A stretch of 64,000 nucleotides of DNA from a virus. Lineage: Duplodnaviria > Caudoviricetes. Under the pieces are notes generated by a model that was given only the letters and a program-made list of their open reading frames with translations, ran no database searches and had not been told where the DNA came from. Location: IMG/VR virus record IMGVR_UViG_3300028048_000042. One strand, 5' to 3'. The position numbers and the translations under genes were made by a program. Shown here piece by piece: positions 25,221-29,912 of this stretch. Numbering within the stretch: the first letter of the stretch is position 1; every line of letters begins with the position of its first letter.

Positions 25221-25373
25221 CTACTAAAAAGTAGTTACTTTTTTTTTAAAAAAAAGTATAAACATATTTATAAAAACTGTTGCATATACTCTTAAAATGT
25301 GTTATACTATAAGAGAAGTTAAGAAATGATACAATCCAACCAAAAAGAGTTGGAATCAATGGAGGTAAATGAC

Positions 25374-25961
25374 ATGCAATTATTAGGAATGAGAGAAATG
25401 GAAACAAAAGTAAGAATGCTGACCTATGCTTTACGCAAAGAATTAGAAAAAGCAGGTTTGGACATGTACCCACTTGTTGATGTAACAGTTACTAGATGTT
25501 GTACTAGACGTTTTGGATTATGCCACTACAATACGAAATATGATTTTAAAAAAGGTAAAAGCGTAATTGACAGTTGCAATATTGTAATTTCAGACCTTTG
25601 TTTTCATAATACAGAGAATTGTTTGAGAGATACAATTTTGCACGAATTGGTACATACTGTAAAAGGTTGTCAAAATCACAGAACACCATTCCACAATACC
25701 GCAAGAAAAGTCATGAGATTGTTTCCTGATGCTCACATTGATACACATTGTAGCAAAGAGGAAAGTCAAAAATTAAGAGAATTTAACAAACAGGTTGGCA
25801 GGGTAAGAGTTGCAAAATACAAAGTGACTTGTAACAAGTGCGGTTGTAGTTGGGAATATAAACGCAAAACGAAACTTGTTACCGCATTGTTAGAAGGAAG
25901 AAAACATGGTTATCGTCACACAAAATGCGGTTGTCATGACTTTTCTTTGGAAATTTTGTAA
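25374..25961 (+). CDS. SprT-like zinc metalloprotease with C-terminal Zn ribbon
   Basis: TILHELVH (HExxH), HxxxF, YKVTCNKCG...KCG. Confidence 0.8.
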   Translation: MQLLGMREMETKVRMLTYALRKELEKAGLDMYPLVDVTVTRCCTRRFGLCHYNTKYDFKKGKSVIDSCNIVISDLCFHNTENCLRDTILHELVHTVKGCQNHRTPFHNTARKVMRLFPDAHIDTHCSKEESQKLREFNKQVGRVRVAKYKVTCNKCGCSWEYKRKTKLVTALLEGRKHGYRHTKCGCHDFSLEIL

Positions 25962-26194
25962 CCACAAGTTAGTACAAGACAGGGAATATTCCCTGTCTTT
26001 TTGTTATCCACAAAATTATCAACATATCCACAGTATATAAATTCCTAAATAATCAGAAAATTTAGGAATTTATCAAATTTGAAAAGCAAAAATTTTTCAT
26101 AACATATTTGAAAAAGTGCTTGACTTTTGGCTAACAACTGATATAATAAATATTGTAAAGAGAAACCACAAGAATAAAATTGGAGGAATACAAA

Positions 26195-26311
26195 ATGAAC
26201 ATTGAAACCATACAGACTATCAACACTTACGAGATTCCGAAGAATTTGAATGAAAACGAAATGCTTGATTATCTGAAAAATTTGATTAAAGAAAAACAGA
26301 TTGTCGCATAA
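26195..26311 (+). CDS. Small protein (38 aa)
   Basis: Own promoter, GGAGG RBS; MNIETIQTINTYEIPKN... Confidence 0.6.
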   Translation: MNIETIQTINTYEIPKNLNENEMLDYLKNLIKEKQIVA

Positions 26312-26363
26312 GAAAATTTAAAAAAGTGTTGACAAACAATATAAACTCTGATATAATATAATC

Positions 26364-26716
26364 AAGATAAAGGAAAGGAAAGTAAAAGAAGAGGGGAATT
26401 AAAGTTCAAACAAACAGAAGGGAGGAACTTACAATGACCGCCACAGGACAAGCGGTAACGCACCATATTCGTGACAGTGATAACTAACTGCTAAATCTGT
26501 CATAGAATATAGAGTTTAGCAGTTTTGCCGATTCGTAAATTACCTTTAAAAATTTGCGAATATAAAATTTGATTGGGCGTGGTTCGCTCATGGTATGCTA
26601 GGATAGCGGAAAGAACGAGGTTGAATGATGATTAGAGATAAGCCGTAATTGAATTTAATTTATTGTTAAGAATTTTAGGCTATTAAAAACAGGCAAGATT
26701 AACCTTGCCTGTTTTA
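26364..26716 (+). ncRNA. Putative structured small RNA / peptide-encoding RNA
   Basis: Promoter-to-terminator unit without a normal ORF; stems 26486-26495/26515-26524 and 26531-26540/26552-26561; terminator 26685-26716. Confidence 0.45.
26434..26487 (+). CDS. 17-aa peptide MTATGQAVTHHIRDSDN
   Basis: GGAGG RBS 8 nt before ATG, promoter TTGACA 26329/TATAAT 26352. Confidence 0.4.
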   Translation: MTATGQAVTHHIRDSDN

Positions 26717-26815
26717 TTTATAAATTTATTTAACAAAAGTATTGACATACATATTTAAATATGATATTATAATGGTGTAAGGAAAAATGAATTATCTAAT
26801 AGGAGGTAGTTGACA

Positions 26816-27586: not shown

Positions 27587-27979
27587 ATGGAAACGAATTT
27601 TGAAAAAGAATTAAAAAAAGCACTGTTCATGAATGGTCACAAAGCTATCGAAGATTTTCTTGGCTATGATAGTGATGATTATGATGTAAATGAGGATAGA
27701 GCCATTACAGAAAAACGTATAGATGATGTTATGGCACAAATGCCAATGGACGAACAAATGGAATTTTACGCAAAGTATGGCGAAACAAAAGTGCTTACGT
27801 TGGATTGTACCGCACTTATCAGCTATACGCAAAACGTTTGTGTTCCGAAAGACCTTACCAAAGAACAAGCCATTGATTTTATCAAAGACATTTTTATGGA
27901 TTTATCAAGACCTTGCGATTTTGAATTTGTGCCTGAAAGCGATACAATTAACGAAGAATTGTCAGAATTCGATTCTTAA
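27587..27979 (+). CDS. Acidic hypothetical protein
   Basis: GAGGT RBS, terminator. Confidence 0.72.
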   Translation: METNFEKELKKALFMNGHKAIEDFLGYDSDDYDVNEDRAITEKRIDDVMAQMPMDEQMEFYAKYGETKVLTLDCTALISYTQNVCVPKDLTKEQAIDFIKDIFMDLSRPCDFEFVPESDTINEELSEFDS

Positions 27980-28131
27980 AAAAAGCATGGTAGAATTTTT
28001 CTACCATGCTTTTTTACTTCCATAATTGTCTGAACATTTAGGAATTTGTAGATAATATAAGGTTTAAAAATGAGCAAAAATTTTTTTCAAAATCTGTTAT
28101 ACATTGGCTGAACAAGAACTATAATTATAGT

Positions 28132-28900
28132 GTAAAAGAAAACACAATGGAGCAGGGTTAAAAATTTTAATCTTGTTGTGTTGAGTGGTTTTTTACTTGT
28201 TGAATGACTCCCTATAGTGCAAGTATGTAGTATAGAGAGCCATTGAACAATTTCTATCTTGAAATAAGATATACAAATTGCATATAGAAAAATCACACTA
28301 GGAATGAGCATAAAAACCTAGTATAAAAAAACCGTGTCCCAAAAATTGTAGGTTTACGAATAATTATCGTTCGTGTTAAAGACAATGTGAAAAACTTGAA
28401 CCTTCACTGCTATGTTATAAGCCTATTGCCTGTGAGTATTGTTAAAAGTCAATGCCACGAATAGACAAAACTTTAATTGATTTGTGATATTCAAAACGTT
28501 ATTAAATAACACATGAATACACATATTCCACTTGTCACGAATTGACATTAGGAATGAAAATTATCACAAATGGTTGGAGCAGGTCGGCAGTAGATTAAGA
28601 GGATAATATCCGCAGGTTATAACTCCGTCAACTATTAAGATACCCCATTCGTAGTGCCTATGGCAGGGATGACGGAAGGAAATGCCTATCCTGTTAAGTG
28701 ATTCAGTGAAGTATTATATGGTTAAGCTACAATCGGACATATTTTCCTTCCGTTGGTAGAAACCTCATTGTGAATATATAATAGCAATATTGTATACTGA
28801 CAATAAGGCTTGTACCCTCATTCTCTTACAAAGTAAGGGGAAAAGTATTTCCTATTGTGAAATACCACTTTCACTTGAAATACTTTGCAAACTATGCTGA
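28132..28900 (+). ncRNA. Putative large structured non-coding RNA (~770 nt; ends approximate)
   Basis: Only long ORF-free stretch inside the early region; promoter TTATAC 28097/TATAAT 28120; many stems with G-U pairs on the + strand, e.g. 28152-28161/28167-28176, 28471-28489/28562-28579, 28671-28682/28743-28754, 28842-28851/28877-28886. Confidence 0.7.
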
Positions 28901-28915
28901 AATGCTAACATTTAT

Positions 28916-28960
28916 ATATTTTGGAATATAATATTTTAGAATATAATATTTTGAAATATA
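28916..28960 (+). repeat. Three tandem 15-bp repeats ATATTTTRRAATATA
   Basis: ATATTTTGGAATATA, ATATTTTAGAATATA, ATATTTTGAAATATA. Confidence 0.85.
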
Positions 28961-28978
28961 TTAGAGGAATGATTAAAT

Positions 28979-29152
28979 ATGATGGTATGGAGAGATAAAA
29001 AGAATAAAAGGGCAAATAGGCGTGAGCAAAGAAAACGTACTGAGTTTGACAGAAATTATCGTAAAAACTGTGGCGTTTTGCTTAGACGATATGCAAGTCG
29101 TGAAGAAGTAGAGCAAATGATAGCTGAAACTATGGCAAGAAGCAAGAGATAA
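28979..29152 (+). CDS. Arg/Lys-rich small protein (57 aa), possible RNA-binding peptide
   Basis: MMVWRDKKNKRANRREQRKRTEFDRNYRK...; AGAGGA RBS; terminator 29137-29165. Confidence 0.6.
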   Translation: MMVWRDKKNKRANRREQRKRTEFDRNYRKNCGVLLRRYASREEVEQMIAETMARSKR

Positions 29153-29297
29153 TCTTGCTTCTTTTATATTCCTAAATAATCTGAAAATTTAGGAATATGT
29201 TTTTTATTTCTTTTAAAAAAAGTATTGACATGATACAATATGTGTGATATACTTAACTCATAAAGCTAAAGATGTTTTCCAAAAGGAGGAAGTAAAA

Positions 29298-29912
29298 ATG
29301 ATTAACAAAGAGATTAAAGATTGGATTTTCAACAGACAAGTTGATATTAATGTAACAGTTTTTGATAAGATAAGGTCTGATGTTATTAACGAATGGAGTA
29401 CGGATAGGGATTGTACTTTTGAAGGATTTGTCAAAACAAAAGCATATAACGTTATTTATAATACTATTGTCGATTCTGAAGAAACCGTAGATAAATATAT
29501 TAAAACGTATATTTTTAAAGAACTTCTTTGGGATTATATTTGTGCGAACAATCAAGAATATAGCCCTATGATAGTTCTTTACTGCAATATCATTACAGAG
29601 GAATTTATGAAGTGGATGTCTACATTAAAAGATGAAATTTATCAAAACTTTGTAACCGATATTATAAAAAAACATTATACAAATTCTCTCAAGATTGAAA
29701 TGGGTAGTGAATTGGATGAATTGCTTTCAATTTTCATTAAATGTGTGGGGAAAACCCATACATGTCGAGAAATTGACCATGATATTAAAGCGATTCTTAA
29801 CCATCAAACTGTAAAACTTTCTTTCAAAGTTCCTAAAAACTTATCGGATGAAGAACTTGTCAAACATCTGACACTTCTTGTAAAGAACAAATGCTTTTTA
29901 ACGGAAGGTTGA
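29298..29912 (+). CDS. Hypothetical protein
   Basis: Promoter/leader nearly identical to that of 8894. Confidence 0.75.
   Translation: MINKEIKDWIFNRQVDINVTVFDKIRSDVINEWSTDRDCTFEGFVKTKAYNVIYNTIVDSEETVDKYIKTYIFKELLWDYICANNQEYSPMIVLYCNIITEEFMKWMSTLKDEIYQNFVTDIIKKHYTNSLKIEMGSELDELLSIFIKCVGKTHTCREIDHDIKAILNHQTVKLSFKVPKNLSDEELVKHLTLLVKNKCFLTEG

Follow-up and report, generated by a model that had tools for sequence, protein, structure and literature searches.

What does a phage keep in a kilobase-long interval that carries no recognisable gene, inside an otherwise gene-dense array? The interval lies in a window of 64,000 nucleotides (the whole stretch of DNA analysed here, 64 kb) from a 318,451-bp (318-kb) phage contig, and PHROG matches as well as one cytosine methyltransferase were found within this window. 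The interval is bounded by a 150-aa gene that ends at 27979 and a 57-aa ORF that starts at 28979. The longest plus-strand ORF between them (27980-28978) is 48 aa, stop codons are present in all frames, and reading TGA, TAG or TAA as sense gives a maximum of 75 aa on the plus strand and 112 aa on the minus strand. The original prediction described it as the only long ORF-free interval of the array. No stretch of the window without a plus-strand ORF of at least 60 aa is longer than this one (1218 nt), but 11 other gaps of at least 250 nt exist, the next longest at 25962-26809 (848 nt). None of the internal short ORFs has a family match in Pfam or PHROGs, and the ATG at 28682 is absent from two relatives (L003 and L004). 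The RNA region is non-coding.

In the second-longest ORF-poor stretch (25962-26809, 848 nt), gene callers give only a 38-aa gene in relatives, and another small-peptide or RNA unit may be located there. The preceding gene in this early cassette array (25326-25961) encodes a SprT-like metalloprotease domain protein (Pfam PF10263, E 3.7e-6) and is kept in every relative fetched.

The interval and its surroundings are organised as follows:

27979-28015 (no strand assigned): terminator that closes the 150-aa gene upstream, an inverted repeat of 17 bp without mismatch (100% complementary) followed by a T-run
28018-28045 (no strand assigned): left copy of a ~33-bp palindromic array element, which recurs between the cassettes of the array
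28098-28125 (plus strand): sigma-A-type promoter TATACA-16-TATAAT, 10 of 12 matches, with an A/T-rich tract upstream
28916-28960 (plus strand): three tandem 15-bp A/T-rich units (ATATTTTRRAATATA) in a poorly conserved spacer, containing promoter-like hexamers
28979-29152 (plus strand): gene of the basic 57-aa protein, whose translation contains 19 Arg+Lys versus 8 Asp+Glu
29137-29163 (plus strand): intrinsic terminator, the first one after the RNA promoter, retained in relatives that lack the cassette
29166-29198 (no strand assigned): right copy of the ~33-bp palindromic array element, from repeat and inverted-repeat analysis

A palindrome followed by a promoter had been predicted ahead of the RNA, and both were recovered, the former as a palindrome arm at 28018-28045 and the latter in the form TATACA-16-TATAAT (28098-28125). 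Transcription would start near 28131-28133. In relative L004 both promoter hexamers are kept although the surrounding DNA is only ~55% identical. The terminator at 27979-28015 isolates the RNA unit from upstream transcription, and nearly every cassette in the array is closed by a terminator. We found no predicted terminator between the RNA and the 57-aa gene; since the sole downstream terminator (29137-29163) comes after the 57-aa ORF, RNA region and gene are predicted to be transcribed as a single unit, and for the same reason the RNA may be a leader of the 57-aa gene instead of an independent transcript. The 15-bp units at 28916-28960 vary in copy number (two units in L003) and may be an operator or promoter of the peptide gene. 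They also resemble one arm of the array palindrome. Minus-strand genes of 124-143 aa were called across the terminator, palindrome, promoter and 5' hairpins in one relative (L005:2912-3343) and in one ENA contig; these calls are probably spurious, because the minus-strand ORF of the window is only 74 aa and the L004 sequence is unrelated there.

Relatives of the locus were obtained via the flanking proteins and the peptide from Logan, ENA and JGI assemblies. Judging by record names, RNAs of the window type (type A) seem to come from rumen studies, and a distant type (type B, described below) from a sewage study. The promoter, the RNA, the gene for the 57-aa basic protein and the terminator constitute a cassette (28045-29136). 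Two relatives (L001 and L002) lack exactly 28045-29136, with identities of 97-98% upstream and 92% downstream, and the left breakpoint of this presence/absence is at 28044/28045. This precise absence indicates a dispensable block in which promoter, RNA and peptide ORF come and go together. In the empty slot (L001:5203-5440), the left palindrome is followed by the terminator hairpin and the right palindrome, while promoter, RNA and ORF are gone; the terminator stem retained in the cassette-less relatives carries a C-G to U-A compensatory change. In L004 the core of the RNA is preceded by another terminator, another palindrome and another 5' leader than in the window, and the module is thus not tied to a single context. 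Haplotype groups coincide between the RNA and the peptide gene.

Two parts of the RNA stand out by sequence conservation:

28245-28897 (plus strand): sequence-conserved RNA core, 97.0-98.7% identical in L003, L004, L005, L007, L008, L020 and L022, and 97.4-98.7% when tallied over 8 distinct relatives
28580-28780 (plus strand): ultra-conserved block, 1 of 201 sites variable among 8 sequences, within which both strands of a 12-bp helix (described below) are located

In the same relatives, identities are 92-95% for the 57-aa gene, 80-93% for the spacers and 71-95% for the downstream gene, and the core remains above 98% where the downstream gene falls to 71-74%. The RNA had been estimated at ~770 nt. 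Its conservation in sequence is confined to the core (~28245-28897), whereas the first ~110 nt (28131-28244) keep their shape and not their sequence. The 57-aa ORF provides an internal reference. Most pairs of sequences differ by 9-12 synonymous versus 1-2 non-synonymous codon changes (5 versus 3 in L022), and on this sequence evidence the ORF is a real gene under protein-level purifying selection; its silent sites therefore serve as a local neutral yardstick. Among the 8 sequences, 17 of 380 columns are variable in 28518-28897, compared with 14 of the 58 third positions of codons in the peptide gene (Fisher p 5e-6) and 31 of 81 columns in the spacer (28898-28978). Divergence is 1.6-3.0% in the core and 4.6-7.6% in the adjacent peptide gene, mostly synonymous in the latter, in a comparison that comprises only 8 distinct sequences diverged by at most 3% in the core. 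Judged against this yardstick, the core is under nucleotide-level purifying selection, although part of its low divergence could reflect genealogy, given the recombination mosaics in the array. One such mosaic is L020, which over window positions 27587-29152 has 0 of 273 differences in the upstream gene, 2.2% in the core and 7.5% in the peptide gene.

These rates bear on the simplest account of the interval, that it is a decayed protein gene or a functionless spacer. Stops in all frames are what such an account predicts. The region, however, changes several-fold more slowly than third-codon positions in the gene next to it, just the reverse of what a pseudogene would do, and its internal ORFs are without family match, which leaves this account hardly credible.

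At the 5' end of the RNA, three hairpins were recognised:

28132-28196 (plus strand): HP1, a G-U-rich 5' hairpin with the apex GCAGGGTTAA/TTAATCTTGT; its sequence varies among relatives and the hairpin is kept
28197-28250 (plus strand): HP2, the second 5' hairpin, from folding and the covariance model
28255-28271 (plus strand): HP3, a hairpin of 6 bp whose loop (28261-28265) is a GAAAN pentaloop, from the alignment and the covariance model

HP1 and HP2 begin one or two bases from the predicted start site, and the segment that contains them (28131-28244) folds with a z of -6.6 on the plus strand versus -3.5 on the minus strand. The stem bases that can be aligned show an A-U to G-C change in HP1 and a G-C to A-U change in HP2. 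Within HP2, a G/G mismatch is replaced by G-C in L020, and U-A by U-G and A-U by G-U in L005. The first ~110 nt of L004 are 53% identical to the window and have the same two-hairpin layout, with an HP2 interior that is unrelated but self-complementary; folding of this region gives a z of -5.4, against -6.3 for the window (28131-28250; 200 shuffles each). A covariance model of the window-type 5' region (HP1-HP3) detects the 5' region of L004 at E 4e-6. The loop of HP3 is GAAAU, GAAAC or GAAAA, its G-A-A-A being invariant. Hairpins at 5' ends are an established stabiliser of bacterial transcripts, and the 5' hairpins would fit an RNA meant to persist.

The predicted structure of the core contains three prominent elements:

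28471-28579 (plus strand): long stem of 18 pairs (4 G-U in the window) that encloses two sub-hairpins, in the MFE and alifold structures, z -3.6
28755-28816 (plus strand): long hairpin with a GNRA tetraloop at 28784-28787, from structure prediction and the alignment
28842-28886 (plus strand): 3' hairpin of 10 + 6 pairs with a variable hexaloop, the final structured element of the core

The tetraloop at 28784-28787 is GCAA, GUGA or GCGA across relatives and thus GNRA throughout. Three pairs of the stem at 28471-28579 vary (U-G to or from U-A, or A-U to or from G-U), and one pair breaks in L022. The stem AAAGTATTTC/GAAATACTTT is present in both MFE and alifold structures, so that the three stems listed in the original prediction (GCAGGGTTAA/TTAATCTTGT, the one at 28471-28579 with its two sub-hairpins, and AAAGTATTTC/GAAATACTTT) all appear in the computed structures. 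Less came of the long-range and alternative pairings. For the TGACGGA motif, two alternative partners had been proposed: the downstream one forms part of a 12-bp helix (28671-28682 with 28743-28754) of -18.6 kcal/mol, compared with -9.2 +/- 1.8 in shuffles (matched by 0 of 300), while pairing with the upstream TCCGTCA is reached by 6% of shuffles and is not significant. A riboswitch-like switch between alternative pairings is accordingly not supported, the upstream alternative being no better than chance (the same 6% of shuffles). Nor is there support for the suggested pseudoknot between 28335-28351 and 28727-28739: the segments are complementary, but the segment pairs better elsewhere, and 5% of shuffles match its best duplex. 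Multistem junctions occur in the predicted structures, and covariation is too shallow to define them.

Folding that surpasses shuffled sequence was expected of such an RNA. Across the whole 776 nt this holds, with a z of -7.3 on the plus strand and -4.9 on the minus strand (20 shuffles). The signal is uneven along the RNA (-1.9 for 28245-28470, -3.6 for 28471-28580, +0.7 for 28581-28760 and -5.3 for 28761-28900), and the z of the whole RNA therefore owes much to the terminal hairpins. The two 400-nt windows of the core (z -2.5 and -3.6) lie inside the genome background (400-nt windows with mean z -1.9, sd 1.8 and minimum -5.9) and are thus not exceptional, and the overall predicted fold of the ultra-conserved block (28580-28780) is no better than shuffles.

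The second expectation concerned covariation among homologues. We counted changes in a 577-column alignment of the 8 distinct sequences on the MFE structure of the window (185 pairs). Nine changes within pairs are one-sided and leave the bases paired, two break a pair and none is double-sided; the core thus shows pair-preserving changes (9 of 11) without double compensation. Slid controls gave 2-4 further pair types, compared with the 9 of 11 kept here. Variable columns make up 11.1% of hairpin loops, 6.9% of other unpaired positions and 3.0% of paired positions (p 0.008). The pair-preserving changes are almost all A to G or G to A opposite U (A-U to or from G-U), which would give A-C mismatches on the minus strand or in a DNA cruciform; the constraint therefore acts on the plus-strand RNA.

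The same substitutions weigh against a DNA-level cause of the conservation that is independent of RNA, for example an origin, a site of packaging or recombination, or a platform for protein binding. The missing thermodynamic folding signal of the 200 bp conserved best and the recurrent palindromes that flank the unit are both in line with such an element. It is nevertheless highly improbable, as the changes are strand-specific (A-U to or from G-U on the plus strand only), loops vary more than stems, the core contains no iterons or repeats, the unit is dispensable in close relatives, and it is bracketed by a promoter and a terminator, as a transcript would be. We consider it very likely that a functional structured RNA exists at this locus, and from the sequence comparisons the region from 28131 to ~28900 is a conserved plus-strand structured RNA of ~770 nt that is a candidate for a new class.

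The protein encoded downstream is predicted to consist of a long N-terminal helix, rich in arginine and lysine, and a short helix (mean pLDDT 72). It belongs to no Pfam or PHROG family, and its matches in the Atlas are below a meaningful score. An exhaustive phmmer search of 1.84 billion representatives returned only its own cluster and one other (P0023), a protein of 50 aa that is 46% identical (E 4e-7) and has the motifs EFD[RK]NYxKNCG and AS[RK]EE in common with the 57-aa peptide. P0023 is present on six short contigs. Its upstream region was read on the contigs that extend far enough (L012, L013 and L016), and consists of a consensus TTGACA-17-TATAAT promoter and ~500 nt free of ORFs in L012 and L013, and of a variant form in L016. 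This type-B RNA folds with a z of -3.2, and comparison of its two variants (L013 versus L016) shows three double-compensatory pairs and several A-U/G-U changes. Its 5' end is variable. In another type-B contig the first ~130 nt of the RNA are replaced by unrelated sequence (L014:1-82); this may mean that the 5' module varies here as it does in type A, or that the contig is a chimera of the assembly.

No relation between type A and type B RNAs was detected by blastn, nhmmer, a shared-word count or the covariance model (R1). The two types have one 11-mer in common, where 0.39 are expected by chance. The sequence AGTAGATTAAG, present in both, was dismissed as a sign of homology: it does not reach significance, and its type-B copy falls in the part absent from L014. 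The two RNAs may be homologues that can no longer be recognised as such, a plausible outcome where the proteins are 46% identical, or else the peptide may work with RNAs of separate kinds. By sequence, what the types demonstrably share is the peptide and not the RNA. Searches of GenBank phages with the peptides (tblastn) gave only chance-level matches (E=3) inside a 310-aa Streptococcus phage protein, which were rejected. Scans of IMG/VR with the two flanking proteins, the peptide alignment, the degenerate EFDxNYxKNCG pattern and exact words of the RNA gave no match, nor did scans of GTDB genome contigs with the peptide pattern and a 22-mer of the core. A scan of JGI metagenomes with the peptide alignment found two near-identical loci only.

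The arrangement at both types of loci invites the view that the ~850 nt preceding the ORF are a cis-acting leader, a 5' UTR that senses a signal or protein and controls the translation or stability of the 57-aa protein, which would be the effector. The missing terminator between RNA and ORF is compatible with this, as are the repetition of promoter, long leader and peptide at the P0023 loci and the fact that the peptide is homologous between types while the RNAs are unalignable. Conservation is distributed the other way, however: the 650-nt core is stricter than the protein that it would regulate, and the spacer and ribosome-binding region beside the ORF are the least conserved (31 of 81 columns variable, with a 15-bp unit lost in L003). 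Furthermore, the promoter-like hexamers in the spacer could express the peptide independently, and a constrained core of 650 nt exceeds by far, to our knowledge, the known bacterial leaders. We regard a leader as rather unlikely.

A large RNA in a phage also calls for comparison with the described classes, and membership in GOLLD or ROOL had been put forward beside a new class. No Rfam 15 family matched the 64-kb window at gathering score, and GOLLD, ROOL, OLE, HEARO, RNase P, tmRNA and introns were absent from 27900-29300 even at E<=10. The sub-threshold matches in 27900-29300 are terminator-like hairpins at 27950-28060 and, elsewhere, chance-level models of snoRNAs, miRNAs, sRNAs and riboswitches; covariance models of 6S or riboswitch families (Rfam 15) gave no meaningful match. 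Type-B loci showed no ROOL or other meaningful Rfam family (E<=1 across loci, E<=10 on L013). ARAGORN detected no tRNA or tmRNA in the 64-kb window, blastn against GenBank phages left the RNA region without match, and neither type of RNA has a paralogue elsewhere in the window. Membership in GOLLD or ROOL is therefore not supported, there being no covariance match (gathering score or E<=10) and no tRNA gene in 64 kb, whereas the alternative of a new class stands, as this conserved plus-strand structured RNA is absent from Rfam.

In the genomes of phages and prophages, ROOL and GOLLD RNAs are often neighbours of tRNA genes or islands. GOLLD (RF01998), ~800 nt long and encoded by phages or prophages, has no known function; its 3' part is conserved and its 5' part less so (PMC12286853). 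ROOL (RF03087), a large ornate RNA that phages also carry, was discovered in metagenomes of the cow rumen (PMC5737381). The window RNA resembles GOLLD in being ~770 nt long and phage-borne, with a variable 5' region (53% in L004) and a conserved core, which is a resemblance only. It differs in lacking a covariance match and nearby tRNA genes, in its predicted co-transcription with the gene of a small basic protein, and in being known from only a handful of metagenome contigs. With ROOL it has in common that it is a large phage RNA from rumen-type samples, and the type-B leader (~500 nt) is similar in size; unlike ROOL, neither the window nor the type-B loci have an Rfam match to it or a tRNA context. 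An assembly of the GOLLD/ROOL kind, a protein-free multimer with a peptide gene that is merely co-transcribed, would account for the size class, the phage location, the rumen-type samples and the variable 5' and conserved 3' parts as in GOLLD. It is improbable in view of the missing Rfam match at the thresholds used, the missing tRNA neighbourhood and the linkage to the peptide, which repeats in a distant relative.

The small phage RNA of phi29 offers a further comparison. The pRNA is an early, phage-encoded structured RNA, as the window RNA would be (we infer early expression here), and it acts with phage proteins. In contrast to the window unit, which is dispensable and much larger, pRNA is 174 nt long, essential for packaging and conserved in position.

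The basic peptide and the hairpins of the RNA recall antitermination systems. In lambda, an arginine-rich helix binds boxB, a GAAAA or GAAGA pentaloop folded much like a GNRA loop. Like lambda N/nut boxB and HK022 put, the locus would combine a small arginine-rich protein and a GAAAN/GNRA-type hairpin on one predicted early transcript, and the two hairpins directly after the promoter of the window RNA are reminiscent of put in particular. On this analogy, the arginine-rich N-terminus of the peptide would bind the GAAAN pentaloop or the GNRA hairpin while the RNA is nascent, and would modify RNA polymerase to let it read through the cassette terminators. The Arg/Lys-rich N-terminal helix of the peptide, the GAAAN hairpin near the 5' end with its invariant GAAA and free last base, and the terminators after nearly every cassette of the array speak for it. 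Known nut and put sites comprise 15-70 nt, however, and cannot account for a constrained core of 650 nt. Nor is read-through obviously needed, as every cassette has its own promoter, and the type-B peptide is lysine-rich, with no pentaloop matching HP3 found in the type-B RNA. In addition, and unlike lambda N or put, the window RNA is ten times larger, the peptide gene lies downstream of the RNA, and we found neither sequence similarity to these systems nor homology of the 57-aa peptide to lambda N. Antitermination is thus a doubtful explanation.

The reading that we prefer is that of a stable RNA which, early in infection, forms a small ribonucleoprotein with its peptide and acts in that form. 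A host-type promoter (28098-28125) would drive a single transcript that starts with two stabilising 5' hairpins, continues with the ~650-nt core and the gene for the helical basic protein of 57 aa and ends at the terminator at 29137-29163. The RNA would itself be a stable and functional product, most likely in complex with the basic protein encoded beside it, and its role could be an accessory early function, such as host takeover or counter-defence, and not core replication or packaging. We infer the binding of peptide to RNA purely by reasoning from this arrangement, and we give the statement as a whole about an even chance. A bolder version, which we hold tentatively and consider possible but clearly less probable, is that the window RNA is the first of a new class of giant phage RNAs with a dedicated basic peptide, in contrast to GOLLD and ROOL. 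RNA and peptide would form an early particle of a jumbo phage, encoded by a swappable cassette and targeting host RNA or defence, and the ~500-nt type-B RNA would be a diverged second member.

Large ornate RNAs of bacteria and phages are rare, and GOLLD, ROOL and OLE are without assigned function, while recent cryo-EM has shown striking assemblies of such RNAs. A further phage RNA of ~770 nt would offer a new entry point to what they do. The candidate class, which rests on few and closely related sequences, is set apart by its dedicated peptide and the mobility of its cassette. Given a host or an in-vitro system, the linked 57-aa basic protein as a putative partner and the natural cassette-less variants would ease tests of binding, structure and phenotype.
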